NCBI GenBank assembly: GCA_023898465.1
Contig: CP060223.1
Coordinates: 480,001 to 544,000 of the forward strand
DNA from: Candidatus Nomurabacteria bacterium
Lineage (GTDB): Bacteria > Patescibacteriota > Patescibacteriia > HK-STAS-PATE-3
Direction: 5' to 3'
Length of the DNA stretch: 64,000 nt
Of this stretch, positions 7,732 to 36,623 are shown piece after piece; the stretch's first letter is position 1; every line of letters begins with the position of its first letter. The translations under genes were made by a program, and so were the position numbers. Below the pieces are notes generated by a model. The model did not search any database. It was not told where the DNA came from and saw only the letters and a list, made by a program, of their open reading frames with translations.

Positions 7732-10526
7732 TATCTTGGCTCAAAGTTTGCTCCAACGCTGATGCCACCGCGGAAAGCTGGATCAAAAGTAAACATTTGT
7801 TCAATGACACTTCCGTTACCATCAAAAACTCTCAGGTGTGGCCCTCCGCCAATCCCTGCACCCACAATGATATCGTCAGCCCCATCAGCATTCACATCCG
7901 CGCTCGCAATGCGTACTCCTCCGCGAAAATTCTCGGCAAAAGCGAAAAATTGAGACTGCACTTCCCCACTCGCATTAAATACTCGAACATGCGGTCCACC
8001 ATTACTTAAAGGAGCAACGACTATTTCTGATACGCCATTACCATCCACATCACCAACTGCCAGGTCTAAACCGATTCTAAAGTAGCTTGGGTAAGCGAAA
8101 AATTGAGAGACCAGTCCTCCACTCCCATTAAAAACACGCACATGTGGCCCACCGTTACTAATTGGCGCTACAACAATTTCAGGAATAGCATCCCCAGTCA
8201 CATCACCACATGCAACAGAGAGACCTATGCGAAAATATGATGGGTAGGCATAAAATTGACCGTATAAGCCTCCGCCGCTAAAAATGCGCACTTGGGGCGC
8301 TTTTCCTGCACCAGTACCCACAATAATTTCATCACGTCCATCACCATCCAAGTCGCAGGTTGCAATGCTTACTCCACCTCGATAACTTGGCGCATAGGCC
8401 ATAAACTGGTATTCCAAAGCCCCACGCGAGGAAAAGACGCGAATGTGTGGACCACCACTTGAAGCTGGCGCGCTTACAAATTCCATTAATCCATCTCGAT
8501 CAATATCACCTGAAGTAATATTCACTCCTCCAGTAAAGTTTGGAGCATAGGCCATTGTCTCCCATAGGAGACTCCCATCCTGACGCAAGGTTCGCACGGT
8601 TGGACTATGGTTGCTTAAAGGCGCGCTGAGTAGATTAACCCAAACGTCGTAGTTCATCGTATCAGTCGCTGTGCTCACTAACCCTGCCTGATCAGTGGCC
8701 TTCACTGTCACGGTGTTCAATCCCGGCCCTAAAGTAAGCACGCCGGAGTAGGTATTGCCATCACGAAAAGCAAGACGCCCATTCACGGTCACTTCAGCAA
8801 TTCCTGAATCATCGTCACGTGATACGCCAACGATATAATGACGTCGATTCCCGGTTGAGCTACCTGCAAAAGGATACGTTATGGTAACCGTTGGAGCCAG
8901 GGTGTCGATTTTTACTTCAAAGCTATGGGCACTTTCAATGTTGTCAGCAAGATCTTCGGCATAATATTCCACAGTTATATTACCTTTAGGCAAAGTCACT
9001 GCACTGGAGTATGTCTGCCAACTACCGCTATTAATGCGATAAAAAATTGCACTCACCCCAGCGGCATCATCGCTAGCGGACAATGTCATCTGCGGGGCTG
9101 TGCTATAAAAACCATTTTGGCCGTTTGGACTACTGGGACTGAGACTAGCTGAGGATACTGGCGGCGTAACATCAGTAGTGATAACAGACAAGCCGGCATC
9201 AATATCTAAAAGCCCGTATCCATACTCGAGATCATAGCCACTACTACCGAGGTCCTTAGCTGTTTCAGTAAGCACGCCTTTAGCATCAGCAGGATCAGCG
9301 CCGGCTGCTAAAAAGAGTGCTAAGGCAGCACTCACATGTGGAGTGGCCATCGACGTGCCCTGATAGCCCACATAACCAAAAGTGGTAAAATCAGCTGGTA
9401 GGCTATCCCCATCGAGGTTTGTGAATCCTTGCTGGATAATTGATGAGGAGCCATCCCCGCCTGGTGCAACCAAGGCGATATTTTGTCCATAATTAGAGTA
9501 CGAGGCGCGAGTATTTTGTGTGGTATTTCCGGTAGCTCCCACGGCAATAACTCCTGAGGTGCGAGCTGGGTATAGCAAGGTTGAGCTATTTGCATTTCCG
9601 GTAGCAGCGACCACTAGAATTCCCTGAGCAATAGCATCATTTACTGCGTCAGTCAGAGCCTGACTGTAGCTACTTGTTCCCAAGCTCATGGATATAATAT
9701 CAGCGCCGTGTGTTCGCGCATAATCAATCCCCTGCGCAATATCAGCAGTAGTACCATATCCATCTCTGGCTAAAACTTTAACCGGCATGATTGTGCTGTG
9801 ATATGCCAAACCCGCAGCGCCGAGGCTGTTATGTGTTGTCTCTGCTATGGTGCTACTTACATGTGTACCATGTCCATTATCATCATTCGGATGAGTATCT
9901 TCGTTTACAAAGTCATATCCAGTTGTGAAATTTGTGGCACTAAAATCTGGCGCTTTTGCATACTCTGCACCAGCTGATAAGCAATTACCCGGATTTTCTA
10001 CTAAACACTTCGCTGGGTTAGGGTCTGTATATGCTTGATAGGCAACGCCAGTATCTAAGACTGCGACGATAACACTCGGATCACCACCATGGGTTGGACT
10101 GCTCGTGTCATAATCCCAGGCCTGAGACGCTTTTACCTTTGTAAAATTCCATTGCTGGTTATACAAAGGATCATTAGGAGTGAAGGTTGCTCCTACTAAA
10201 TAATTTGGCTCTATATACCGAGTCTCAGGCAATGAGGCAAGTCTATCCTGCAAATCATTTGCCTCAGTTTCATTTGGTAATGAAAAAAGAAAACTCTGCG
10301 CACTTAATTGCTGCACAGTTAAGGAGGGAAAGGTCGAAAGTATAGTGGCGAGATGATCATTATCGGTAATAATGTCACCTTCCTCATTTGCACTTATACC
10401 AGTTGTGGTAAATCCCACAACCCGCTGACCAGGATATACAAACTGACTTTGCGCTTCTACTTGCGGACTAAAAAAACTGAAAATCCAAACTAGAACTATT
10501 CCGCCTATGAAGCGCCCCCATCTCAT
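7731..10526 (-). CDS. secreted subtilisin-like serine protease (peptidase S8) with C-terminal FG-GAP/beta-propeller repeats
   Basis: Signal peptide present. The S8 catalytic triad contexts DTGV, HGTHVSST and GTSMATPHVS are all there. The C-terminal 290 aa are about six repeats containing GGPHxRVF and xDxDGDGxxEIIVG (FG-GAP-like). The start overlaps the upstream gene stop (ATGA). Confidence 0.8.
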   Translation of the reverse strand: MRWGRFIGGIVLVWIFSFFSPQVEAQSQFVYPGQRVVGFTTTGISANEEGDIITDNDHLATILSTFPSLTVQQLSAQSFLFSLPNETEANDLQDRLASLPETRYIEPNYLVGATFTPNDPLYNQQWNFTKVKASQAWDYDTSSPTHGGDPSVIVAVLDTGVAYQAYTDPNPAKCLVENPGNCLSAGAEYAKAPDFSATNFTTGYDFVNEDTHPNDDNGHGTHVSSTIAETTHNSLGAAGLAYHSTIMPVKVLARDGYGTTADIAQGIDYARTHGADIISMSLGTSSYSQALTDAVNDAIAQGILVVAATGNANSSTLLYPARTSGVIAVGATGNTTQNTRASYSNYGQNIALVAPGGDGSSSIIQQGFTNLDGDSLPADFTTFGYVGYQGTSMATPHVSAALALFLAAGADPADAKGVLTETAKDLGSSGYDLEYGYGLLDIDAGLSVITTDVTPPVSSASLSPSSPNGQNGFYSTAPQMTLSASDDAAGVSAIFYRINSGSWQTYSSAVTLPKGNITVEYYAEDLADNIESAHSFEVKIDTLAPTVTITYPFAGSSTGNRRHYIVGVSRDDDSGIAEVTVNGRLAFRDGNTYSGVLTLGPGLNTVTVKATDQAGLVSTATDTMNYDVWVNLLSAPLSNHSPTVRTLRQDGSLLWETMAYAPNFTGGVNITSGDIDRDGLMEFVSAPASSGGPHIRVFSSRGALEYQFMAYAPSYRGGVSIATCDLDGDGRDEIIVGTGAGKAPQVRIFSGGGLYGQFYAYPSYFRIGLSVACGDVTGDAIPEIVVAPISNGGPHVRVFNGSGGLVSQFFAYPSYFRIGLDLAVGDVDGNGVSEIVVAPLSNGGPHVRVFNASGEVQSQFFAFAENFRGGVRIASADVNADGADDIIVGAGIGGGPHLRVFDGNGSVIEQMFTFDPAFRGGISVGANFEPR
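7750..8600 (-). repeat. tandem coding repeats (about 135-150 nt units) encoding FG-GAP-like repeats of the S8 protease
   Basis: Repeated DNA and protein motifs are visible: ...gtgtggcccaccgttact... and GGPHVRVFN/GGPHLRVFD/GGPHIRVFS. Unit boundaries are approximate. Confidence 0.5.
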
Positions 10527-11743
10527 GTCGACAGTGAACTTAAGATAACTTTACTGTTTTGCGTTACACCGTCCCGTAAGTAATTTATATCCACTTCAGC
10601 GCCTATAGTCACGGACTGGAGTAATTGCTGCAAGCTGTGGGACTGGTCAATATTTTGACCATTCACGGAGATAATGATGTCGCCGTCTTGTAGACCCGCC
10701 TCGCTGGCCGGCCCACCCTCAACAACTGCTGGGTCAGCCGCGGTCCCTGCCAACAAAAACCCATCATTTCGCTGATTCGTTTGGCTCTCACTTAATCCTA
10801 CTGAGTTATGCAAATCATAACCATGCACACCTAATCGAGTCCGTGTGATAAGTCCTGAACTGGTATAGGCCTGAAGAGCTGTTCGTATATATACAACAGG
10901 GAAAATACGATTTGGATTTTCTTGTTGCAAATATATACCTTGCAGAGAACCGTTTTGATCAACCACAATTGACCCCGGGCTCACCGCCGCTTCTCCACTC
11001 AGCAAAATATCGTGGGATAAGACCTCGCTTGATTCAAGCGAAAGCGGATCACTGTTTATTGATGCATTTGCGCTGACTAACTGCGTACTACGAATTTGCG
11101 GCACTCCAAGTGATCGATTCGCACTTAAAATATATAGCCCTTGCCCGGCGTGCAAATCCGCAGCTACACCAAAGCTCAATACTTGGTATTGCTCTCCGCT
11201 CACTTGACCAAGGCTTAGATCGCTAATTGGATCATAGGCAAGAATACTTACGTCCAACTTTTTTCCTGCATTAGTATATGCGACAACCTGACCACTAATG
11301 GTACTTGCATTAACTTTTCCATCAAAAACAAAGATACCATCAGTGGTAACAAAAGCTCCTGTACCAAGGTACGTGTACTGAGTATCCTCAACTTGATATA
11401 CACTAAGGAGTGATTGAGTCACTCGGTCATAAAGCGCCTGCCTGTCTTGGTCAATCCGATCGGTGCTCCCTGTCTCCCGAATAATAACCTCTCGAGCCTC
11501 ATTTGAGGTTTCTGCGAGACGAATATCTCGCCAAAAAGGCCATTGAGGGTTCTGTTGATATAGACTATTGAGAAGTACCATCCCTACTGCCCCAGATAAC
11601 AAACCAAATAGAACCGTGAAAAGAAGAATAGAAATCCAAGAAACTCGTTTACTTGGTTGCTCAATTGTACTTTGGTTATAAAGCTTCTCAACTGAGGCTT
11701 CTTGGGAATATTTTGGGGATGTGGGAGCGATCTTTGGTTTCAT
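10523..11743 (-). CDS. membrane-anchored HtrA-like trypsin-fold protein with C-terminal PDZ domain, probably catalytically inactive
   Basis: N-terminal TM and a PDZ-like C-terminus (GLQDGDIIISVNGQNI). The positions expected for the catalytic His (after the TTDG strand) and the GNSGGP serine motif are not conserved (GEAAVSPGS). Confidence 0.5.
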   Translation of the reverse strand: MKPKIAPTSPKYSQEASVEKLYNQSTIEQPSKRVSWISILLFTVLFGLLSGAVGMVLLNSLYQQNPQWPFWRDIRLAETSNEAREVIIRETGSTDRIDQDRQALYDRVTQSLLSVYQVEDTQYTYLGTGAFVTTDGIFVFDGKVNASTISGQVVAYTNAGKKLDVSILAYDPISDLSLGQVSGEQYQVLSFGVAADLHAGQGLYILSANRSLGVPQIRSTQLVSANASINSDPLSLESSEVLSHDILLSGEAAVSPGSIVVDQNGSLQGIYLQQENPNRIFPVVYIRTALQAYTSSGLITRTRLGVHGYDLHNSVGLSESQTNQRNDGFLLAGTAADPAVVEGGPASEAGLQDGDIIISVNGQNIDQSHSLQQLLQSVTIGAEVDINYLRDGVTQNSKVILSSLST

Positions 11744-11753
11744 ACTTGTACAA

Positions 11754-12518
11754 CTAAACCCAGGAGGCGGTTCCTAATATAATCACGAGTAAGATAAATG
11801 ATAACACAAGAGGACGCAGTATCATGTTGCGTTCAATTTTCTCCTTTAATGCAGCCCGATGCATGGCCACCAAGGTGTAGTAAATGATTGTAATAACAGC
11901 TCCATTTACAATGAAATTTGTTGGAAAAAAGCTCATCACGATAAAGACCTCACTGAGCATGATGGAAAAAACAGCAAACCAGCGCCAACCCCGCACATCC
12001 AGGGTCTTTTTTACCCATAACATTTCATAAGAAACGCTCACGACTACTAAAACCCAAAAAGGCAAGAGCATGAACCAGTTAAATCCCAAAAAAACTATCA
12101 TTCCGTAAAGAGAGGCGCTGGCAAAGAACATAACCACTAACGCAAATCCATTTGAAAGGTTTTCTAAAGCAAAGGGTTGATATCTACCCGGCGAGTAGTG
12201 GTAATGAAAGATTTGTCGATAATAAAAACCAAGAGCAAACGGGATGATAATAGTGATGCCCCATCGAATAAATGACGAGGTGATAAACAAGACAATACTT
12301 TGACTACTGAGATATAACCAAAATGGCAGGATAAGAAGTGACCAAAAAGTTAGCGACCTCCACTGCCGTCCAGCTAGCAAATACACACTAAGGATATTCC
12401 ACACCGTGAGAATGGCGCCGATTATCCAAACTAAGCCAGGACGGAGAGTGAGGACAAACATCCCGCTAAGGAAGACTATTGTTGAAAAGGCTGGTAAAAA
12501 TCTAATAAACGCAAGCAT
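11754..12518 (-). CDS. polytopic membrane protein, function unknown
   Basis: 254 aa with about 8 hydrophobic helices and no recognisable motif. Confidence 0.45.
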   Translation of the reverse strand: MLAFIRFLPAFSTIVFLSGMFVLTLRPGLVWIIGAILTVWNILSVYLLAGRQWRSLTFWSLLILPFWLYLSSQSIVLFITSSFIRWGITIIIPFALGFYYRQIFHYHYSPGRYQPFALENLSNGFALVVMFFASASLYGMIVFLGFNWFMLLPFWVLVVVSVSYEMLWVKKTLDVRGWRWFAVFSIMLSEVFIVMSFFPTNFIVNGAVITIIYYTLVAMHRAALKEKIERNMILRPLVLSFILLVIILGTASWV

Positions 12519-25693: not shown

Positions 25694-26068
25694 TTACACT
25701 GAGACAAAGCTTTTTGCATAGGTGATGGCTTCATCCATGCCGCCTTCGTATTTCACCACGTACTGATCAGCCACTTCCCTACCTGCTTGCATATCCACGC
25801 GTGAACATAGGGAGCTAAGGAGTATTAAGGGGATGTGCTTTGTACGCTGGTCAGCTTTAATGCAACGAGCAGAGGCAATTCCATTCATCACTGGCATAAC
25901 AATATCTGAAATTATCAGGTCCGGCTTTTCATTCATAACTATAGATACCGGATCAGCACTTGGGTTAGTAAAGTGTCGCACCTCAAAGCCAGCTTGGCGC
26001 AGACGCTGGCCAAACTTTTCTGCAAAAGCTGGGTCATCTTCAAAATGAAGTACTCGAGGTTTAGACAC
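25694..26068 (-). CDS. single-domain response regulator (CheY-like receiver)
   Basis: The D..D...K receiver pattern (DIVMPVMNG) in a 124-aa protein. Confidence 0.7.
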   Translation of the reverse strand: MSKPRVLHFEDDPAFAEKFGQRLRQAGFEVRHFTNPSADPVSIVMNEKPDLIISDIVMPVMNGIASARCIKADQRTKHIPLILLSSLCSRVDMQAGREVADQYVVKYEGGMDEAITYAKSFVSV

Positions 26069-26147: not shown

Positions 26148-26834
26148 ATGAAAATACTACTCATCGAAGACAACCCAGAAATCCGTGAGTTTCTCAAGCC
26201 GGCTTTAGAAGCGGAGGCTTTTTCAGTTGATATTGCTGAGAATGGTAACATTGGTGCAAAAATGTCATGGGATCACACCTATGACTTGATTATTTTGGAC
26301 TACATGCTGCCGGATAAAAATGGCTGGGAAGTATGCCAAGAAATAAGAAATCGTGGAAATAAGGTACCTATTCTCGCACTTTCGGTGGTAAATGATACCG
26401 AAAAGAAAGTAGAATTTCTCAACTCAGGCGCTGATGACTATCTCACGAAACCTTTTTCCTTTAATGAATTATTAGCCAGAATTAGGGCACTTTTGCGTCG
26501 ACCCGATACTTTTGTGCACAATACACTGGCCGTTGGTGACCTTGAAATGGATCTCATTCAGCAAACAGTACGATGTGGGGGCCAAGAAGTATATCTAACT
26601 CGCAAAGAGTTTGAATTATTGGAGTATTTAATGCGAAACCCAGATCGTCCTTTATCCCGAGGAATGATTATTGAGCATGTCTGGGATATGGCAATTAATA
26701 CTTTTTCAAACACAATAGAAACGCATATTTTCAATTTGCGTCGGAAGCTCAATGAAAAAGCTTCGCGACAAATAATCGAAACACTCCCGGGTCGAGGTTA
26801 TAAAATAAGTTCAGTTTCCAAAATCACTTCTTAA
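26148..26834 (+). CDS. OmpR/PhoB-family response regulator (receiver + winged-helix)
   Basis: MKILLIEDNPEI...DLIILDYMLPDKNGWEV...LTKPFSFNELLARIRALLRR and a C-terminal trans_reg_C domain. Confidence 0.85.
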   Translation: MKILLIEDNPEIREFLKPALEAEAFSVDIAENGNIGAKMSWDHTYDLIILDYMLPDKNGWEVCQEIRNRGNKVPILALSVVNDTEKKVEFLNSGADDYLTKPFSFNELLARIRALLRRPDTFVHNTLAVGDLEMDLIQQTVRCGGQEVYLTRKEFELLEYLMRNPDRPLSRGMIIEHVWDMAINTFSNTIETHIFNLRRKLNEKASRQIIETLPGRGYKISSVSKITS

Positions 26835-27051
26835 GATAAAGTTAAGCAATTCTTTATCTCACCTGCTCTATAGTACATGTGCGCCTTGCTGGTCGACATT
26901 GCGCAGTAGTACAAATTTAATAGGAATAAGCCACATGAGCACCTTACTGGAGCAAATGCTCAACCAAGTTGAGACGCGGGGGGAATTGCAGAGCACCGAA
27001 ATTGCTCTGCAGCAAAGTGAGTTCCAGCCCTGGTCTCCCTGATAGCGCAAA

Positions 27052-28506
27052 ATGAACGCTCCGACGCCTCAGTTTGGAAACGGCTTTTTTTCAAAACCGA
27101 ACTACCCGCGTAAGGGCGTTCATTTTTTTCGTCTGCTTTTTGCACTTAAATCCATTGATGAGGATAAGCGTCGTAAGGAATTTATTCTCCTTATTATTCT
27201 GACGACCTCCATACTTATTGTCCTAGCGCTGAATCTCAGCGTACTTATTCGATTACTGCAAAGCCCTGACTTCACCGATCTGCGAGTTGCCGTCCCTTTC
27301 ATCATACTTCTCGCCTTTGTTTTTCTCTTCTGGTTAATGAAAAAACAACACATTACGATTACATCGTACATTGTCGTTGGAGTATATTTCTTCAGTATAA
27401 GCTTTGCTGCTTATACTTGGGGTATTGATTTGCCGGCCGCACTACTGAGTTTTGGTGTCCTCCTTTTTATTTCCGGAATGCTTATTTCAGCTCGCTTTGG
27501 TATTGGCTTGGCTATTGCCACTGCGGCTATCTTGATTTATTTTGCGTATCTGGAAGAGCACGGTATACACACACCGGACCGAGCCTGGATACAACAAGGG
27601 ATACGAGTAAGCGATGCCATAAATTTTTCTATCATACTGCTCTTTTTAACTGTGATCTCATGGCTGGCTAACTCCCAAATCAATAAATCTTTGCAACGCG
27701 CTCGATATTCTGAGGAAGCCCTGAAACAAGAGAAAGACCTACTAGAAATTACGGTACAAAATCGCACAAAGGCTTTGCGAAAAATTGAGCTACAAAAAAT
27801 ATCCGAGCTGTCTCAATTTGCTGAATTTGGCCGACTAGCAGCAGGACTGTTTCATGATCTCATTAATCCACTTAATGGCCTGCTCTTAAATATCCATCGC
27901 CTCTAACAAAGTGATGAAGCAAAGCAAGGAGACACACAAGAACGTATACAGCAAGCCGTAAAAGTAGGAGCTAAATTACAAGAATTTATTCAAAGGATTA
28001 AAAAGCAAATTAGTCGGGAACAAAGCCATGAAATATTTTTCCCAGCAAATGAGATTAGCGATGTTATCGAGCTACTGCGATACCAAAGCACTGAAGCAAA
28101 GGTGCATATCGCCTGCGTGACCACTAGAGAAATTTCCATTTATGGCTCCCCTCTCCTGTTTAGACAGCTCATACTCAATCTCCTAACCAACGCGATTGAG
28201 GCGTATCAAGGAACTGAGCAAAAAGATAAAACTGTACTCATCACACTTCATGCAGATAATGCAAATAATGAACTGAGCGTCCGAGATCATGGAGTTGGTA
28301 TCCCGAAAGATAAGCTCTATAAAATATTTGAGCCATTTTATACGACCAAGCCTAGTGATACTGGGATAGGCATTGGACTATCCACCGTTAAAAGTATTGT
28401 TGAGCAAGAATTGGGAGGAAGTATTAAGGTGCAAAGCGGCGAATATACAACCTTTACCATTCGTTGGCCTCAAAACTCTTCACCGACGCGACATGGAGAA
28501 CACTAA
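27052..28506 (+). pseudogene. membrane sensor histidine kinase interrupted by a single in-frame TAA (27904-27906)
   Basis: ORF 27052-27906 has 6 TM helices and ends inside the HisKA region (FHDLINPLNGL...NIHRL*). ORF 28102-28506 (HATPase_c, with N-box, G1 DHGVGIP and G2 GIGLGL) is in the same frame. The whole interval 27052-28506 is one frame with one stop. Confidence 0.6.
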
Positions 28507-30439
28507 TGCGCAGATCATCAAACAAGGACTACGTTACCTACAAAACATACAAACAAAAGAAGGGGGCTTCCTCAGTCAATCAAGCCCACTAAGCGAAAAA
28601 AATCCCAGGGGAATTCCGCGCCTCACGAGTTTTTTTACTTCACATGTACTTTTTTGCCTTGCTCAACTTCGCGAGTACACTGAAACAGAACTCATCATTA
28701 AGAAAGCCGAGCATTTTTTACGTTCACAAATTAACGCGCAGGGTTCATTTAATTACTGGAATAGAACAAGTACAGAGGCTACACAAATCCCCTATCCGGA
28801 TGACCTCGATGATACGATATGTGGATGGAATGCGCTCCATCTACTTCACACCGACGGTCTAAGCGGCGCTGAGTTGGCCAAGCTCACTCAACTCCTTATT
28901 CATCAGGAAGAGCAACCCGGCGGACCCTACCGCACCTGGCTACTGAATTCTCACTCCCCTGATGGTGAATGGTCAGATACTGATTTGGCAGTCAATGCAC
29001 ATATCGCCCGCCTTTTACGTTACCTCGGAGTAAAAACACCGCGCCTAGATGCTTTTTTAGAAAATGCATTGCGACAGGAAGTTCTCCTCTCGCGATATTA
29101 TCCTAGCTCCTTCCCAATCCTCTATGCGCTCTCCTATCGTAGCCCTCAAAAACATTCAAGCTTTATTCTACGTCATATCAAGAAGCTCCAACTCCCTGAC
29201 GGCACCTGGGGTAATCCATTACATAACGCTTTAGCTATTGAAACGCTGAGGGAGCTTGGCATTCGAGAAAATGAATTCGATAGCACTCGTGCGCAACAGT
29301 CCTTACGGGAAGCTCAAGAAAAAGGAGCTTGGCCAGCCATTGCTTATTGTATTGATCCCTGCTTCGAGGGCGAACAAATGATTGCTCGATCGAGCGCCCT
29401 TACAACCGCATACTGCCTACTTGCACTACATCAAAAAGAGAAAAAATCTCCTGTAACTATCGCAAAGGCAAATGAAAGCGAGGCGCGCTTTCTGCATGAC
29501 GTCCATCAAATTCTTTCTTATAAAATTACTAGTCTTGCGCCAGAGTTACAAGATCAGGGTAAGCAAACAATACTGCACTTTATTGAAAAAAAAGAAAACG
29601 CACATATCGCACTCCTCTCTTTACTAAGTTACCGAGCACTTTCCTCAAATATACTTAGATCCGACTATGAGTATCTGCTACGTCTCGCAATAAATAATAT
29701 CTATGGATGGATTGCCTATGGCATTTACGATCACATTCTCGATGAAAAAGATCTCATTGAGAAGCTACCTCTCGCCAATGTTTTACTCCGCACTCTTCAA
29801 TCAGAATACACTAAGCTTTTGCAATATATCCCGGGAGGTATTACTTATCTCGAAAACACTCTTAATGCCATAGACGCGGCTAATGCATGGGAAATTGACC
29901 ATTGCCGACTACACGTTAATGAAAAAAAACTTAAGCTACCCCAACACTTGCCTGCATTTAAGGATCTTTCGCAGCTAGCACAAAAAAGCTTTGGACATGC
30001 ACTACCAGCAATAACGGTATTTGCGCTCCACGGCTATAGCTTAGAAGAAGCTCCCCTTCAACATTTGCAAAACTTTTTTAAACACTTCCTCATAGCACGT
30101 CAGTTAAACGATGATGCACATGACTGGCTTACTGACTTAACAAAAGGAAGAATCACGCCAGCCAACCTGCGGGTGATTAAAAAAATATCAACTAAAGAAA
30201 TTAACTTTCAAGAGGATCTTACAAAACTAAAAAAAATGTATTGGGAAGAATGTATCAATGATATTAGTCAAGAAATTCTTCAGCATATTGCTGAAGCAAA
30301 AAATGAGCTTGGACAAATTAATATAGCAAATCCTGAGTACCTCAGCTCACTTCTTCACTCCTCGGAAACTGCAGCTAAAGAGGCAAAAAAACAAAGTAAG
30401 CAAATACTAGGCTTTCTAAAAAACTTTCATCCAGCCTAG
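28493..30439 (+). CDS. two-domain protein with an N-terminal prenyltransferase-beta/class II terpene-cyclase-like alpha-alpha toroid domain (DLDDT motif) and a C-terminal all-helical domain with Asp-rich motifs
   Basis: The start was reset to ATG 28493 (MENTNAQ), which overlaps the HK stop by 14 nt. Repeats of KEGGFLSQ, AQGSFNYW, QPGGPYRTW, LPDGTWGN and EKGAWP match prenyltransferase/squalene-cyclase QW-type repeats. PYPDDLDDTICGW resembles the class II DxDDTA motif. The C-terminal half carries YDHILDEKD and LNDDAHDWLTD. Confidence 0.5.
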   Translation: MENTNAQIIKQGLRYLQNIQTKEGGFLSQSSPLSEKNPRGIPRLTSFFTSHVLFCLAQLREYTETELIIKKAEHFLRSQINAQGSFNYWNRTSTEATQIPYPDDLDDTICGWNALHLLHTDGLSGAELAKLTQLLIHQEEQPGGPYRTWLLNSHSPDGEWSDTDLAVNAHIARLLRYLGVKTPRLDAFLENALRQEVLLSRYYPSSFPILYALSYRSPQKHSSFILRHIKKLQLPDGTWGNPLHNALAIETLRELGIRENEFDSTRAQQSLREAQEKGAWPAIAYCIDPCFEGEQMIARSSALTTAYCLLALHQKEKKSPVTIAKANESEARFLHDVHQILSYKITSLAPELQDQGKQTILHFIEKKENAHIALLSLLSYRALSSNILRSDYEYLLRLAINNIYGWIAYGIYDHILDEKDLIEKLPLANVLLRTLQSEYTKLLQYIPGGITYLENTLNAIDAANAWEIDHCRLHVNEKKLKLPQHLPAFKDLSQLAQKSFGHALPAITVFALHGYSLEEAPLQHLQNFFKHFLIARQLNDDAHDWLTDLTKGRITPANLRVIKKISTKEINFQEDLTKLKKMYWEECINDISQEILQHIAEAKNELGQINIANPEYLSSLLHSSETAAKEAKKQSKQILGFLKNFHPA

Positions 30440-30463: not shown

Positions 30464-31108
30464 TTAATTTTTCACGCTAATCCCGCCAAACATAGCCGTA
30501 CCCTGAATTGTCAGAGTCTTGCTCGCATTTGGATCGGGTTGTGATTTATCCTCTGAGCCACCTAAGATCGGTGTTACATTCATCACCACCCGCACATTTT
30601 TTGGCACAATAATATCAATACCAGCAAAACTGGCTGATGCGTTCAGGACTGATTGCTCAGCCAAATCTGCTTCGCGAAAATCTAACTTAATGCCACCGAA
30701 CCAGGCTGAGCTTTGTCCTTCCTTAAAATGACCAGTCACTTTGCGTTCTATACCGCTAAATACCACGCTTGCATCAGCTGACCCTTGATCCTCCTTCATC
30801 CTTCCATCCCATTGCTTTCCCATGACGATCCGGGCACCAAAGACAATGATAATGATTGGCCAGAATAAGGTCCAGGCAGATTTCGCAAAGAGATCGAGTT
30901 GATCAATAAACAATAATAAGCCAACTAAAATAATGAGGGCCGGACCAAACCACATGCGACGATTATTATTCAATGCGTAAAAACCTACTGCGATTATTGC
31001 CAAGGACCACCAAAAATTTGGTAGATTGTCTGCCCAAGCAAGATCAAGCTGCTGCAGGAGAAAACCCAAGCCTAATAAAATCAAGAAAAAACCTATAAGT
31101 TTGCGCAT
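30464..31108 (-). CDS. LiaF-like cell-envelope stress membrane protein (N-terminal TM helices + C-terminal toast-rack/DUF2154-like domain)
   Basis: 3-4 TM helices followed by a beta-rich C-terminal domain (GGIKLDFREADL...GGISVKN). It is convergent with the TCS operon. Confidence 0.5.
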   Translation of the reverse strand: MRKLIGFFLILLGLGFLLQQLDLAWADNLPNFWWSLAIIAVGFYALNNNRRMWFGPALIILVGLLLFIDQLDLFAKSAWTLFWPIIIIVFGARIVMGKQWDGRMKEDQGSADASVVFSGIERKVTGHFKEGQSSAWFGGIKLDFREADLAEQSVLNASASFAGIDIIVPKNVRVVMNVTPILGGSEDKSQPDPNASKTLTIQGTAMFGGISVKN

Positions 31109-32567: not shown

Positions 32568-32813
32568 TTATGAAATATCAATTTCAGCTTGGTAACCCGC
32601 TTCGCGAACCGCTTGAATAAGCTGGTCAGCCTTTACCTCATCACCGTGCGTAACCTCGGTGCGTGCTTTCGCATAATTAGTTTTTGAAGAATCAACACCA
32701 GGCAAATCCTCAATACTATCATCAATGGTCATGCTACATGAAGTACAATGCATACCACTAATTTTTAGAAGGGTCTTTTGCCTATCGCTTTGTTTTTTAC
32801 GTTGAAAAAACAT
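32568..32813 (-). CDS. copZ: heavy-metal-associated (HMA) copper chaperone, CopZ-like
   Basis: GMHCTSCSMTIDDSIEDLPGV. The true start may be internal. Confidence 0.7.
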   Translation of the reverse strand: MFFQRKKQSDRQKTLLKISGMHCTSCSMTIDDSIEDLPGVDSSKTNYAKARTEVTHGDEVKADQLIQAVREAGYQAEIDIS

Positions 32814-32829
32814 AATTGGATATTGTGAA

Positions 32830-33876
32830 TTAAATAACTTCCATCACGCCTGTATACATACCCATAGAACATGAATATGTATATCGGCCCGGTTGCGTTG
32901 GAGTAAATTGAAAACTTTGTCGGTCAGTGGGACGCAAAAAAGTGTCAATACCAAATTGTCGAAAAGTAAAAGCAACCGCACAAGAATATACGTCATTACT
33001 CTGCAATATCAACTCCACTGGCTTATTCTTTTCAACCGCAAAATATCGGGGCGAGTACCCTTGACCCAACACGTTAATGGTTACTCGCTGCACACCGTTA
33101 GTAAGTACCACTTCATCACTAACAGCCTTTGGTGTGCTTGTGTTCTGAAATTTTGCAATAATTTTTTCATACGTAATTGGTGCATCATACACATTAAGGA
33201 TCCCGTTGAAGCTGATAAGCGACAAGACAATCAAAATAGCAGCGGCAGTTTTTTGAAACCATCCATGCATCGTATCTGAGAGCTTCGCGGTCATGACGCC
33301 AAGTAAGGTAAAAATTGGTGAAGTACCAAGCACAAAGAAAAACATAATAAGGGCTCCAGCTATAGGACTGCCACTAGTAACTGCCACCACTTCCATTGCC
33401 TGAGTAACGCCGCAAGGGATAAAGACGGTCAAGACCCCTAATACTGCGGGGGCAAATAAAGTATCGCTCTTACTTGATTTCTTCACAAAGCGCTGCAGCC
33501 AACGCGGTGGCTGAAATGCTAAGAAGCGAAAGATTGGATGCACGTTTAATAAGTTCATTGCTGTAGCAAACATAAACAACGCTGCAGCAAGTTGAAAAGC
33601 GATACGCACATTTAATCCTATCGCTAACACTGAACCAAGCCAGCCAAGCAAAAAACCAAAGGCGGTGTGTACAATTAATTTCGCTAGTAAAAAAATACCT
33701 ACTGGCCAAATATCTGTTCCGCGGATTCGTGCATCGCTAGATTTTAGTGATGTTTTTCCGTTTTCAGATCGTTCCTTCTGATTAGCTATCACGCCTGCCA
33801 ACAACCCCCCTTGGACAGCTAGGCAGGTTAAGCCACCGGTAGTTAAGCCTGCTAAGAAAAAAACCCAATAATTCAT
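32830..33876 (-). CDS. polytopic membrane protein with C-terminal cupredoxin-like domain (putative copper-handling)
   Basis: About 7 TM helices and a C-terminal beta-sandwich with Cys/His/Met (YSCAVAF...[16 protein letters not shown]). The start overlaps the copA stop. Confidence 0.5.
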
Positions 33877-36104
33877 ATGTGTGATCGAAACGTTTTTAAT
33901 CGTAAGGCATTAAGCACAACTGAAACACTTGAAAAGGCCATTGCAGCGCCTGCCCAAATTGGATTGATAGTAATTCCCCAAATCGGCGCTAATGCTCCCA
34001 TGGCAACGGGTATGAGAAGAACATTATAACCAAAAGCCCAAGCAAGATTTTGCCAAATATTCTTCATAGTTGCTCGAGAAAGCGCAAGAGTCACTGGAAT
34101 TAACCGTAAGTCTGGACGAAGTAACACAACTCCAGCGGTCGCAATAGCAACATCAGTTCCCTGCCCCATTGCAATACTTAGATCCGCCGCTGCCAAGGCA
34201 GGCGCGTCGTTAATTCCATCCCCAATCATTGCGACGCCTTTTTTCTGCTGCTGCAGCTCTTTTATTCGCTGCTCTTTTTCTTGTGGAAGCACCTGTCCGA
34301 TAACTTGCGAAAGTTTAAGCTCACGCTGCACGTGCTGCGCTGCTTCTCTAGTATCACCAGTGAGCATTATGGTCTGTATGCCCTGATGATTTAAGGCGGC
34401 AATTACGCTGGCGGATTCCTCACGTATCGTATCAGCAATACTAAAGGAGACGAGGGCTTCATGATTGTCGGCCACATATACACGAGACATATTCACTGGC
34501 ATGAATTGAGCCTGGTCTGCATCGATTTGGATATTCTCTTGAGCCAACAGTGAGGCACTACCAATATTCATTTGACCGATAGTATCCTTAGCCCGAACTC
34601 CTTTTCCGGGCACATCAATTATTTCAGGCGCTGTTTCTGCGCTAGGTATTCCTTTGTCATTGATATACTGCGCAATAGCTTTTGCTAAAGGATGATTTGA
34701 GCGTTCTTCAATTGTCCGGACACGGCCAAGTAACTCTTGCTGCTCCTGGACGGAAAAAGTACGCATCATTTGTATATCTTGTACACGGGGCTTGCCTTCC
34801 GTTAAGGTGCCAGTTTTATCAAACACAATGGTCTGCACACGTCTCCCCAATTCAAGCGCTTCAGCATTTTTTATAAGTATCCCAAGCTCTGAACCCTTAC
34901 CAATGCCGACCATAATTGAAGTGGGAGTGGCTAAGCCGAGCGCGCAGGGACAAGCAATAATAAGCACACTCACCATGCTTACAAGTGCGTGTGCCCAAAC
35001 TGGATCTGGTCCAAAAAATAACCAAAGTCCAAAAGTGAGCAATGAAAGAGCGATAACAATTGGCACGAAATATGCTGAGATCTTGTCAGCTAAATTCTGT
35101 ACCGGGGGTCGAGATCCTTGCGCTTCTTCAACTAAGCGTACGATTTGTGCCAGCATAGTTTCATCACCCACTCGTCTTGCTTCCATCTCAAAAGCACCGC
35201 TAGTATTCATAGTTGCGCCAATTACCTGGTCTCCTGCCTTTTTCTCTACTGGCAAGCCTTCCCCAGTCACCATGCTTTCGTCTACCGCAGAGGATCCAGA
35301 CACAATATTCCCATCAACAGGAACTTTTTCACCTGGCTTCACTAAAATACGGTCTCCTACACGCACGTCAGTAAGGGGAAGATCCTGCCAAGTTTTTTTT
35401 TGAAATACATGCGCTATTTTTGCCTCTAGCTTCAACAAACGCTTCATTGCTGTAGCTGCCTGACCTTTTGCTCGCAACTCGAGAAATTTACCCAGTAACA
35501 CTAATGTAATTACCGTAGCTGAAGTTTCAAAGTACGCTAGCTGACTAATACCTAATGCCGCTAATTGATTTTCGTAAACTATTGAGAATGCTGAGGAGGC
35601 ATAGGCTACGCTAGTTCCTAAGGCGATAAGCGTATCCATATTGGCCGTGCGATTTTTCAGCGCAGACCAAGCGCTCAGGTAATAGTTTTTTCCAGCCCAA
35701 AACTGTACCGGGGTGGCAAGTATCCACATCAACCATGACTGACGCAGCCAATCAGGCGCTCCTGGCACCATCGCGCCAATAAGCAATAGTACAGTGAGTG
35801 GGAAAGAAACAAACAATCTCTGTCTCAACTGACGCAACTCTTCGACTCGTTCCTTTTCCGTAAGATCGCCGTGATCATGTACGCCTATGTGCGCTTTATA
35901 ACCCAACTTTGCAACGGTTTGCCCTATTTCATACTCTGGAGTTGCATGAGGGTCGAAGCTAACTGCTGCTTGATGATTTCCATAATTTACCGTTGCCTCT
36001 TTTACACCTGGAAGTTTCTTTAGACGACGTTGGATATTTGCCGCACAGCTTGCGCAATGCATGCCAGACACATGAAAATTGATCTGTTGGACATTATTTG
36101 GCAT
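33873..36104 (-). CDS. copA: copper-translocating P1B-type ATPase
   Basis: N-terminal HMA GMHCASC, a CPC motif ([13 protein letters not shown]), DKTGTLT, TGD and [10 protein letters not shown]. The start was set at ATG 36104 (MPNNVQQ), because the longer ORF start overlaps the regulator gene. Confidence 0.9.
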
Positions 36105-36573
36105 ATTTTCCTGGATTTTTTTGAAAAGCCTTTTTACATCCACTCGCGCAAAAATAATATTTCTTCCCCTGATATTGCATGGCCGCGCCGGCCGTACTCG
36201 GAGAGACACGCATGTGACATACAGGGTCATGCACGATTGGCATAAGATCCTTCATTGTCCTACTGAATTCATCAGGTTTTTTATCGCCCTGTTGAACAAC
36301 AATAATGTCGCGAATAAGTTGACTCGCCTTAGCAAAATTCGGATGAGCTAAATGGTATCGAAGACGCTTTCCCAGCCGATGATAACTTACCGCTCCAGCA
36401 TCACGAAGTATTTTAAGATGCTGACTGAGATTTGCTTGTGGCAAACCAAGCATGTCTTGCATTTCCTCAACCGTTGCTGGGCCTTCTTTTAGTAAATGTA
36501 AAACCTCCAAACGGCGCGGATGTGCAAGCGCTTTTAAAAGCTTGGCGTGGAGTTTAAAAACTTGTTCATACAT
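36094..36573 (-). CDS. ArsR/SmtB-family metalloregulator fused to a C-terminal YHS/TRASH metal-binding domain
   Basis: HTH ([16 protein letters not shown]...[24 protein letters not shown]) and a C-terminal CHMRV...YYFCASGC domain. The start is at ATG 36573 and the 3' end overlaps the copA start by 11 nt. Confidence 0.7.
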
Positions 36574-36623
36574 ATTCGCTATTTCGAATATATATACTTC
36601 AGAAAAAACTGTCAAGAAATCCC

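Follow-up and report, generated by a model that had tools for sequence, protein, structure and literature searches.

A cyclase-prenyltransferase fusion protein of Patescibacteria as a probable maturase of a small tryptophan peptide encoded beside a two-component system

The DNA analysed here, a stretch of 64,000 nucleotides from a Candidatus Nomurabacteria genome that is hereafter called the window, encodes a 648-aa fusion protein (X; 28493..30439, + strand) that joins a cyclase domain to a prenyltransferase-like domain and probably works as a bifunctional peptide maturase, the response regulator (RR), a small peptide, the histidine kinase (HK) and X making up one module like ComQXPA and PalPXQ. 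The product is most likely a lipid-decorated signalling peptide. The folds of the two domains, the conserved sets of catalytic motifs, the purifying selection on the peptide open reading frame (ORF) and the near-universal synteny of the genes are observed.

X is defined by its ORF, by homologues and by an AlphaFold2 model, and is identical to the NCBI entry 'hypothetical protein H6760_02495 [Candidatus Nomurabacteria bacterium]'. A preliminary description had claimed this frame and a 14-nt overlap with a histidine kinase, and both were seen: the start of X covers the final 14 nt of the upstream kinase frame, whose stop codon lies at 28504-28506. Alignment with homologues favours the ATG at 28493 as the start, and a longer form initiated at the TTG at 28373 is without support. 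No transmembrane (TM) helix is predicted in X. The full-length model has a pLDDT of 92.9 and a pTM of 0.87, and the interdomain linker (aa 317-324; 29441..29464, + strand) is the sole segment with a pLDDT below 50. The alignment of X comprises 66 homologues at 27-38% identity, in which D104, D106, D413, D417, Q537, D540, D544, W545 and D548 are invariant; since the Asp and Gln residues are kept across so diverged a set, the motifs to which they belong are not chance occurrences.

On the basis of sequence and model, the N-domain (aa 1-316; 28493..29440, + strand) is a single beta-domain class II terpene cyclase, AstC-like or MstE-like, with a conserved general acid, and cyclase activity is predicted for it. 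Indeed, the AlphaFold2 model displays an alpha/alpha-barrel beta-domain fold without a gamma domain, which bears out the class II terpene-cyclase toroid that the preliminary description had proposed for this half. The DDLDDT sequence (aa 103-108; 28799..28816, + strand) represents the DxDD general-acid motif (D104-L-D106-D107), and D104 and D106, whose loss in homologues would have spoken against that proposal, are invariant in all 66. In particular, PDDLDDT of X aligns with PDDLDTT of AsDMS, and D106 falls on the position of the AsDMS general acid, which is D323 in 9mhs numbering and D333 in the inactive D333N crystal form (PMC12232559). The family profile matches AsDMS at 1.5e-17 and AstC at 3.6e-5, while the window protein scores 18.2 bits against Pfam SQHop_cyclase_C, under the cutoff of 26.1, and a weak match to PF28380 was obtained on two homologues. 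The nearest structural and sequence relatives of the N-domain are AsDMS and the AstC-like proteins (PF28380), MstE, and the structures 8paj, 8pak and 6ij1. These single-beta-domain cyclases share with the N-domain a DxD(D/T) motif in register and the absence of a gamma domain, but AsDMS is fused to a HAD phosphatase, whereas the N-domain of X is fused to a prenyltransferase-like domain, and an insertion, GGPYRTW, is the X family's own when compared with AsDMS.

The pocket of AsDMS also bears on the substrate. Free FPP is bound in AsDMS by R368, R370, R415 and Y416 (PMC12232559), which in the X family become W160, D162, P/R201 and Y202, with W160 invariant and D162 nearly invariant in the 66 homologues. 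The replacement of the diphosphate-binding R368 and R370 argues against a rather improbable alternative, namely that X is a bifunctional terpene synthase that acts on free isoprenoid diphosphates, as PvCPS and abietadiene synthase do, with a prenyl diphosphate made or ionised by the IDS-like domain and cyclised by the class II domain, to yield a cyclic terpenoid, e.g., a membrane lipid under a membrane-sensing kinase, the small ORF being unrelated. Abietadiene synthase (alpha-beta-gamma) and the fungal cyclase-prenyltransferase PvCPS differ from X in having a gamma domain, in using free diphosphates and in being encoded without an accompanying peptide or kinase, and X lacks the NSE/DTE motif of bifunctional class II/class I terpene synthases.

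The C-domain (aa 325-648; 29465..30436, + strand) is modelled as a trans-isoprenyl diphosphate synthase (IDS)-like, all-alpha prenyltransferase fold. Its structural neighbours are of the IDS type and not of the terpene-cyclase type, and include Ord1, an indole/Trp farnesyltransferase. The NSE/DTE motif of class I terpene cyclases, (N,D)Dxx(S,T)xxxE, is not found in X, which carries DDxxD in its place; the C-domain is, as far as the model goes, IDS-type and not a class I terpene cyclase. Of the class II plus class I fusion that had been suggested, the class II N-half and the class I/IDS-type fold of the C-half stand, whereas motifs and neighbours of a class I terpene cyclase are lacking; the structural neighbours do agree with the claim of a class I or isoprenyl-synthase fold with two Asp-rich metal-binding motifs. 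By sequence, no similarity of the C-domain to any named family was detected. Indeed, 20 C-domains scanned against Pfam and NCBIfam at E<=10 gave scattered chance matches only, X did not match Pfam polyprenyl_synt (PF00348) even at E<=10, and searches of PDB sequences with the single protein or with the C-domain profile gave nothing meaningful for the C-half. An hhalign comparison of the C-domain with IDS reached 27% probability, global alignment against IDS of the CPR was uninformative, and only local or extended alignments were usable. This lack of detectable similarity to named families counts against X as a peptide maturase.

The first Asp-rich motif of the C-domain (FARM; DHILD, aa 413-417; 29729..29743, + strand) was placed on the IDS FARM by an extended hhalign alignment; its family consensus is DDFLD, in which the invariant D413 and D417 occupy positions one and five, where Asp is essential in ComQ (PMC5331326). 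The window copy carries a D414H substitution in this motif. A Gln followed by the second Asp-rich motif (SARM) forms Q537-L-N-D540-D541-A-H-D544-W-x-x-D548 (aa 537-548, QLNDDAHDWLTD; 30101..30136, + strand), which hhalign places on the IDS SARM, the 'GK' loop being lost to an 11-residue deletion. The spacing of Q537-x-x-D540, one helical turn, equals that of the catalytic Q216 and D219 of Ord1 (PMC12510300), a likeness in which the Gln is non-discriminating as ordinary IDS also carry FQxxDD. The canonical basic motifs for IPP binding (GKxxR, RRG after FARM, KT, GK after SARM) are unmatched in the profile alignments, which show neither K nor R at those other than GK and whose confidence is low outside the SARM region. 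These correspondences with ComQ and Ord1, the presence of Ord1 among the structural neighbours of an IDS-type C-domain, and the unmatched IPP-binding motifs together with the missing polyprenyl_synt match all support a peptide maturase, as does the mono-beta class II N-domain with its conserved general acid; the unmatched basic motifs and the deleted 'GK' loop speak in parallel against synthesis of free terpenoids. A point on the opposite side is that the second motif of the family is a full DDxxD (D540, D541, D544) with an additional invariant D548, and not the degenerate pseudo-SARM of Trp prenyltransferases (NDxxx in ComQ, DDxxA in Ord1). Indeed, DDxxD was judged unsuitable for Trp prenylation in the ComQ work (PMC5331326).

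A candidate substrate is encoded just 5' of the kinase. A small ORF of 35 aa (MSTLLEQMLNQVETRGELQSTEIALQQSEFQPWSP; 26935..27042, + strand), overlooked in the preliminary description, encodes a putative precursor peptide, in which a conserved leader is followed by a single Trp two residues from the C-terminus. The family consensus is MKxLLKKILTDKxAR...PW(x1-6), and the window peptide matches an HMM of the locus peptides with E=3.5e-11. Of 86 sources, 77 have a copy directly 5' of the HK gene, and upstream DNA is missing from seven of the nine that do not; 75 of the 77 copies contain exactly one Trp, followed by 1-6 residues, and Pro immediately precedes the Trp in 55 of the 77. Family precursors measure 34-40 aa, and gene callers annotated the peptide gene in only some of the assemblies inspected (L001, L004, L005). 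The pN/pS of the ORF is 0.18, which indicates purifying selection. The module holds what is expected beside a Trp prenyltransferase, a gene for a putative precursor whose conserved Trp lies close to the C-terminus, and the frequency and selection of this gene argue for the peptide-maturase assignment. In particular, a conserved Trp-peptide ORF between regulator and kinase favours a peptide over a free terpenoid as the substrate, whereas the terpene synthase considered in the preliminary description would ignore this co-located and selected ORF and leave it without explanation. The fallback offered there, a protein or lipid prenylation enzyme, comes close to the peptide prenylation that we infer.

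The remaining genes of the module form a two-component system. The first gene encodes an OmpR-type RR of 228 aa (26148..26834, + strand; Pfam Response_reg 1e-27, Trans_reg_C 2e-25), and the HK (27052..28506, + strand) has about six TM helices, the H-box FHDLINPL and a HATPase_c domain, generic HATPase_c being its only Pfam match. The kinase carries TM helices only, with no extracytoplasmic or other sensor domain. Its frame contains an in-frame TAA at 27904-27906, which recurs in an independent Logan assembly (L086). An alternative genetic code was rejected as an explanation, since the TAA is single, neighbouring long ORFs are unbroken and orthologues have ordinary residues at this position. 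Given the nonsense codon, the sensing arm may be defective in this genome, and the codon together with the D414H substitution of the window copy counts against the peptide-maturase reading.

Most of 85 loci share the arrangement RR-peptide-HK-X with the window. An HK homologue stands directly 5' of X in 84 of these, so the tight coupling to a histidine kinase put forward earlier does recur in related loci; at least 71 of the 85 have a homologous RR beside the module, and the peptide gene precedes the HK directly even where the RR lies elsewhere. The recurring neighbours are limited to X, HK, RR and an IDS gene, which together with the HK-X adjacency supports the maturase reading. About 21 of 85 loci include a gene for a short-chain prenyl-diphosphate synthase (IDS) within the operon, with genes for isopentenyl phosphate kinase and IPP isomerase next in line in L004; in the 64-kb window, a seed search recovered none of the three. 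The in-operon IDS gene is likewise counted in favour of peptide maturation, and argues against free-terpenoid synthesis, as a bona fide IDS encoded next door would make an elongating C-domain redundant. No conserved protease or exporter was found near the module in the 85 loci, where the one weak candidate, an ABC-type protein, occurs in eight, and this counts against the module as proposed. A scan for operon promoters and terminators was uninformative, with sites no commoner than in shuffled sequence. All related loci are labelled or inferred as Patescibacteria, the system being present in Saccharibacteria at lineage level; at 50% identity the C-domain family falls into more than 1,200 clusters, it was found in 332 species genomes, and a tblastn search of plasmids gave no match.

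Intramembrane-sensing kinases often require accessory proteins. It is conceivable, if very improbable, that X assists such a kinase without catalysis or as a lipid-binding protein, e.g., by binding polyprenyl phosphates or lipid II and signalling envelope stress, which would fit this requirement, the translational coupling of X to HK and the LiaF-like gene (30464..31108) downstream of X in the window. However, the LiaF-like gene lies on the strand opposite to X and a LiaF homologue occurs in only two of 85 loci, which makes the cell-envelope stress locus of the preliminary description a coincidence; moreover, X has no TM segment, and the catalytic residues of both domains are invariant in more than 60 sequences at about 30% identity, which is unexpected for a scaffold.

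The assignment of X as a peptide maturase has a precedent in ChrPC and NctPC, fused prenyltransferase-cyclases (Hubrich et al., Chem 2024) that are summarised in PMC13290415 as prenylating Trp of ribosomal peptides and then cyclising the chain. There, the P domain of ChrPC is given as trans-IDS-like, using C10-C20 donors on a peptide Trp, the C domain as an MstE-like single-domain class II cyclase, and the characterised trans-IDS-like peptide prenyltransferases as all targeting Trp (PMC13290415). ChrPC and X both hold trans-IDS-like and MstE-like domains in one chain, a likeness between the folds modelled for X and the description of ChrPC, and in X the cyclase domain is N-terminal. The precursors of the fused maturases of Hubrich et al. 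are reportedly proteusin/NHLP, Nif11-like or lasso peptides, whereas that of X is a ComX-like peptide of 34-40 aa with its own conserved leader; the X module further differs from ChrPC/NctPC as it is embedded in a two-component system and spread across Patescibacteria.

Histidine kinases cluster with PalQ and ComQ (PMC13290415, PMC10853753). The ComQXPA system of Bacillus and the X module both cluster an IDS-like Trp prenyltransferase (predicted for X), a short precursor with Trp near its C-terminus, a polytopic HK and an RR. No sequence homology between them was detectable. ComQ has no cyclase domain and a degenerate NDxxx pseudo-SARM, whereas X has a cyclase domain and DDxxD; ComX, at 53-58 aa, has no conserved leader, whereas the peptide of the X module does; and the genes run Q-X-P-A in ComQXPA and RR-pep-HK-X here. 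As ComA is NarL-type and the RR of the X module OmpR-type, orthology to ComP/ComA is not indicated and the circuit would be analogous, not homologous, to ComQXPA. The PalP-PalX-PalQ cluster of Paenibacillus likewise groups an HK, a Trp precursor and a trans-IDS-like prenyltransferase, and PalQ prenylates indole at C3, accepting C5-C15 donors (PMC10853753). Unlike in the X module, the precursor PalX carries a leader of the NHLP type and ends strictly in Trp, and PalQ is without a cyclase domain. Ord1 and XiaM also differ from X, being stand-alone all-alpha indole farnesyltransferases for free indole or Trp-derived small molecules, with a DDxxA pseudo-SARM.

The mechanism that we infer, including the peptide as substrate, the Trp atom modified, the chain length, the order of reactions and the kinase as receptor, would begin with binding of an allylic prenyl diphosphate, probably C15-C20, to the C-domain via Mg2+ at both Asp-rich motifs. 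The C-domain would move the prenyl group onto the one conserved Trp close to the C-terminal end of the 35-aa peptide, after which D106 of the N-domain would protonate the distal C=C of the attached chain and trigger cyclisation, yielding a Trp-linked (poly)cyclic terpenoid lipopeptide. Upon leader removal and export, this lipopeptide would be sensed, most likely by the adjacent 6-TM kinase, and the signal passed to the OmpR-type regulator.

The same enzymology could instead, with a lower probability, serve a secreted or membrane-active effector, e.g., an antimicrobial or host-interaction factor, with the two-component system sensing another cue and regulating production. The NctPC product is reportedly of modest anti-cyanobacterial activity, which counts for such an effector. 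A host-aimed lipopeptide is plausible too, as cultivated Patescibacteria are obligate episymbionts, and prenylation makes membrane-active peptides more potent (PMC13290415). Against an effector stand the position of the peptide gene, between RR and HK or right before HK as in the pheromone arrangement of comQXPA/palPXQ, a kinase with TM helices and no other sensor domain, and the fastest evolution in the peptide core and the TM region of HK. Indeed, mean identity over 104 locus pairs is 36% for the peptide core, 45% for the HK TM region, a figure whose weight is limited as TM regions diverge fast in general, 50-51% for X, 52% for the catalytic part of HK, 53% for the leader and 62% for RR, and the rapid divergence of core and TM region points weakly to a pheromone.

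Patescibacteria are ultrasmall bacteria whose genomes are minimal and whose cells live attached to those of a host. Papers searched for a connection of Patescibacteria with terpene synthases, ComQ, RiPPs or prenylation contained nothing relevant, and the searchable literature yielded nothing on how these bacteria might sense each other. It is tentatively proposed that a peptide-pheromone circuit complete in itself is widespread in Patescibacteria (CPR), in which a cyclase-prenyltransferase would put a cyclised terpenoid on the Trp of a 35-40-aa precursor, the 6-TM kinase would act as receptor and the OmpR-type protein as regulator. If so, it would be the earliest proposal of a quorum-sensing or kin-recognition system for this radiation, with a pheromone chemistry, a polycyclic terpenoid on Trp, that is not known from signalling peptides. 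With X, whose C-domain has no Pfam or NCBIfam model and whose family genes are at present annotated 'hypothetical protein', the prenyltransferase-cyclase peptide maturases known since 2024 would gain a very large family of orphan sequence, and its unusually small precursors are attractive for engineering terpenoid-decorated peptides. Collectively, a conserved operon for a putatively lipidated peptide and its probable receptor represents a directly testable candidate for cell-cell signalling in Patescibacteria, and the system occurs in Saccharibacteria, to which the cultivated and genetically tractable strains belong.

The reading frame at 28493..30439 on the forward strand was confirmed as encoding a protein of 648 amino acids, whose sequence is identical to that of a protein annotated as hypothetical in a Candidatus Nomurabacteria MAG. 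The starts of its homologues point to the ATG at 28493, while a TTG further upstream is unsupported, and this start was confirmed to overlap the preceding kinase frame (27052..28506, forward strand) by 14 nt. The motifs singled out in the preliminary description were likewise found, with DDLDDT at aa 103-108, DHILD at aa 413-417 and NDDAHD inside aa 537-548. When 66 full-length homologues were aligned, D104, D106, the GGPYRTW block, D413, D417, Q537, D540, D544, W545 and D548 proved invariant, and since these homologues share just 27-38% identity, chance motifs are excluded. The invariance of the catalytic residues also makes it very improbable that the protein is a non-catalytic accessory of the kinase. 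An AlphaFold2 model built on the same alignment is confident (pLDDT 92.9, pTM 0.87), with aa 317-324 as its sole disordered piece.

The N-terminal domain (aa 1-316) matches best the single-domain (beta-only) class II terpene cyclases. In particular, the family profile matches the sequence of the AsDMS cyclase domain with E=1.5e-17 and that of AstC with E=3.6e-5, and two homologues carry a weak precomputed match to PF28380 ('AstC-like_C'). The resemblance of DDLDDT to a class II cyclase motif, which had been noticed from the sequence, is borne out by the profile alignment, where PDDLDDT is in register with the catalytic PDDLDTT of AsDMS and the invariant D106 falls on the general-acid Asp. This Asp is named in both AsDMS structure papers (one being PMC12232559), and its Asn mutant is the inactive crystal form. 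In contrast, where AsDMS has the phosphate-binding R368 and R370, the family has W160, which is invariant, and D162, which is nearly so, and the GGPYRTW insertion is the family's own; therefore, the head-group bound by this domain would differ from that of AsDMS.

For the C-terminal domain (aa 325-648), searches of PDB, Pfam and NCBIfam detected no relative by sequence. Upon profile-profile comparison with 18 genuine isoprenyl diphosphate synthases (IDS) from related loci, it gave a weak match (P=6.5e-4, probability 27%), in which IARQLNDDAHDW...DLxxGxIT is aligned to the second Asp-rich region of IDS, IAFQIxDDxLg...DIxEGKxT, with the 'GK' loop lost through a deletion of 11 residues. By extending the alignment, YDDFLD is placed on the first IDS motif, while the basic motifs GKxxR, RRG and KT of IDS have no counterpart. 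This half is thus a domain derived from IDS in which both Mg2+/diphosphate motifs are retained and the IPP site is apparently missing, as expected for a prenyl transferase acting on a non-isoprenoid acceptor. The Asp-rich metal-binding motifs suspected earlier are therefore present, but the label of class I terpene synthase is wrong, as the domain has no NSE/DTE motif. At E<=1e-30 the C-domain profile matches 1,218 clusters (50% identity), a number that rises to 1,862 at E<=1e-3, and most of the best 150 matches are proteins of about 650 aa matched in their C-terminal half; around 350 proteins are matched weakly (E 1e-10 to 1e-3).

Trans-IDS-like peptide prenyltransferases use a Gln just N-terminal to the second motif together with the first Asp of that motif, and all those characterised target Trp (2026 review, PMC13290415). 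Indeed, Q537 and D540 of the family have the same spacing as Q216 and D219 of Ord1 (PMC12510300), although the conserved Gln also occurs in ordinary IDS. The second motif is NDxxx in ComQ and DDxxA in Ord1, whereas the family retains the full DDxxD, which work on ComQ reported to be unsuitable for Trp prenylation (PMC5331326). As described in the review, ChrPC and NctPC (Hubrich et al. 2024) unite a prenyltransferase and an MstE-like cyclase in one fused protein, which attaches a prenyl group to a peptide Trp and afterwards cyclises it (PMC13290415); judged by that description, the protein studied here has the same two folds.

The kinase lies directly 5' of the fusion gene on the same strand in 84 of 85 related loci, the last of which has no upstream DNA, so that the coupling of the two genes does recur in related genomes. 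In all five exact-protein look-ups the order is OmpR-type regulator (26148..26834, forward strand, in the window), kinase and fusion protein, in otherwise unrelated neighbourhoods. Relatives were found in 332 species, with one genome scanned per species, and the 80 loci listed are labelled as Saccharibacteria, Microgenomates, Doudnabacteria, Parcubacteria lineages or 'Patescibacteria group', although a few records bear doubtful labels. Homologues also occur in MAG records labelled 'uncultured Gammaproteobacteria', 'Methylomirabilota', 'Vitreimonas sp.' and 'Bacillota' (loci L013, L018, L022, L038, L079 and others). As these loci resemble those of Patescibacteria, the labels are probably submission artefacts, though some may mark genuine occurrences outside the CPR.

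Clustering of all neighbouring ORFs in the 85 loci returned the fusion protein, kinase, regulator and an IDS gene as the only recurrent neighbours; an ABC-type protein is near in 8 loci, and neither a protease nor an exporter is conserved. The LiaF-like membrane protein (30464..31108, reverse strand, LiaF-TM 1.6e-15), convergent with the fusion gene across a 24-nt gap, had been taken to define the locus; since such a gene adjoins in only 2 of the 85 loci, this context is coincidental. A stand-alone receiver-domain protein of 124 aa (25694..26068, reverse strand, Response_reg 1e-13), divergent and right 5' of the regulator, is not among the recurrent neighbours either. Further along, 32568..36615 (reverse strand) has the appearance of a copper/metal-homeostasis cluster. 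Two of its products are an HMA (CopZ-like) protein and a fusion of DsbD_2 and cupredoxin, both named from Pfam matches; read from the translations are a P-type ATPase of 785 aa, whose N-terminus holds a metal-binding region, and a small regulator-like protein that ends in a Cys-rich tail.

The IDS gene is immediately 3' of the fusion gene in about 17 loci and between regulator and peptide ORF in three (L009, L020 and L077). In locus L004, a short-chain IDS, an isopentenyl phosphate kinase and an IPP isomerase follow the fusion gene (9974-12362), the last two exceeding NCBIfam cut-offs, a set that reads as a compact isoprenoid-precursor supply adjoining the putative maturase. That the protein itself makes free terpenoids as a bifunctional synthase, as first proposed, is quite unlikely: a separate IDS gene adjoins it, its IPP- and diphosphate-binding residues are apparently missing, and the peptide ORF would be left unexplained.

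This ORF of 35 codons (26935..27042, forward strand; HMM E=3.5e-11 for the window copy) has counterparts of 35-37 aa that were already called as genes between regulator and kinase in three loci (L001, L004 and L005). Of 86 sources, 77 have a significant match to the peptide HMM immediately 5' of the kinase. Among the other nine, seven lack that DNA, L030 holds a copy that matches the pattern but scores below threshold, and the last is L085. The peptides (median 37 aa) share the N-terminus M-K-x-L-L-K-K-I-L-T-D-K-x-A-R, followed by a variable middle, and 75 of the 77 have exactly one Trp. Pro stands right before the Trp in 55 of the 77, and 1-6 residues come after it. A pN/pS of 0.18, pooled over eight pairs, indicates that the frame is under purifying selection. 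In some peptides, a Cys-Cys pair after the Trp closes the sequence (L004 6335-6448, ...PWGCC; L033 ~5393, ...PWCC; L026 ~5368, ...PWECC), a hint that a subset may carry a disulfide or be modified further.

Given that the protein has both folds of ChrPC/NctPC-type fusions, the most economical reading, by sequence, model and analogy, is that of a prenyltransferase-cyclase of the adjacent Trp peptide. The C-domain would prenylate the Trp, the attached chain would be cyclised in the N-domain, where D106 would act as the acid, and the lipopeptide would be a signal, or at least a product, tied to the two-component system. The four-gene module shares the design of Bacillus comQXPA (PMC5331326), namely a mini-peptide with a Trp, a transferase resembling IDS, a kinase that spans the membrane several times and a regulator, and likewise matches that of Paenibacillus palPXQ (PMC10853753), while its regulator is OmpR-type and not ComA-like. 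The kinase spans the membrane with about six helices and lacks an extracytoplasmic domain; the fusion protein has no TM helix. Over 104 pairs of related loci, the fastest-diverging parts are the peptide core (mean identity 36%) and the kinase TM region (45%), compared with 50-51% for both domains of the fusion protein, 52% for the kinase catalytic part, 53% for the peptide leader and 62% for the regulator. This is compatible, if weakly, with ligand-receptor diversification. The same enzymology could instead yield an effector rather than a pheromone, which we regard as unlikely.

The local copy of the module may be partly disabled. Its kinase frame is interrupted by an in-frame TAA at 27904-27906, 13 codons past the last H-box residue (FHDLINPL), a position occupied by R, N, K or G in orthologues, and the frame 3' of it is still conserved. 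Since an independent Logan assembly of SRR12358676 has the same split (284 aa + 129 aa), assembly error is excluded, and the stop is either a genuine nonsense mutation, a pseudogenisation of recent date or, possibly, a site of readthrough. In parallel, the fusion protein of the window carries D414H in the first Asp-rich motif.

The module is not a new kind of system, as both peptide maturases of the prenyltransferase-cyclase type and Trp-prenylation clusters linked to a kinase are already known. With respect to the literature searched, what appears new is the union of a ComX-like mini-precursor, a two-component system and a prenyltransferase-cyclase maturase, the sequence-orphan transferase domain, and the spread of the family over 1,218 clusters.
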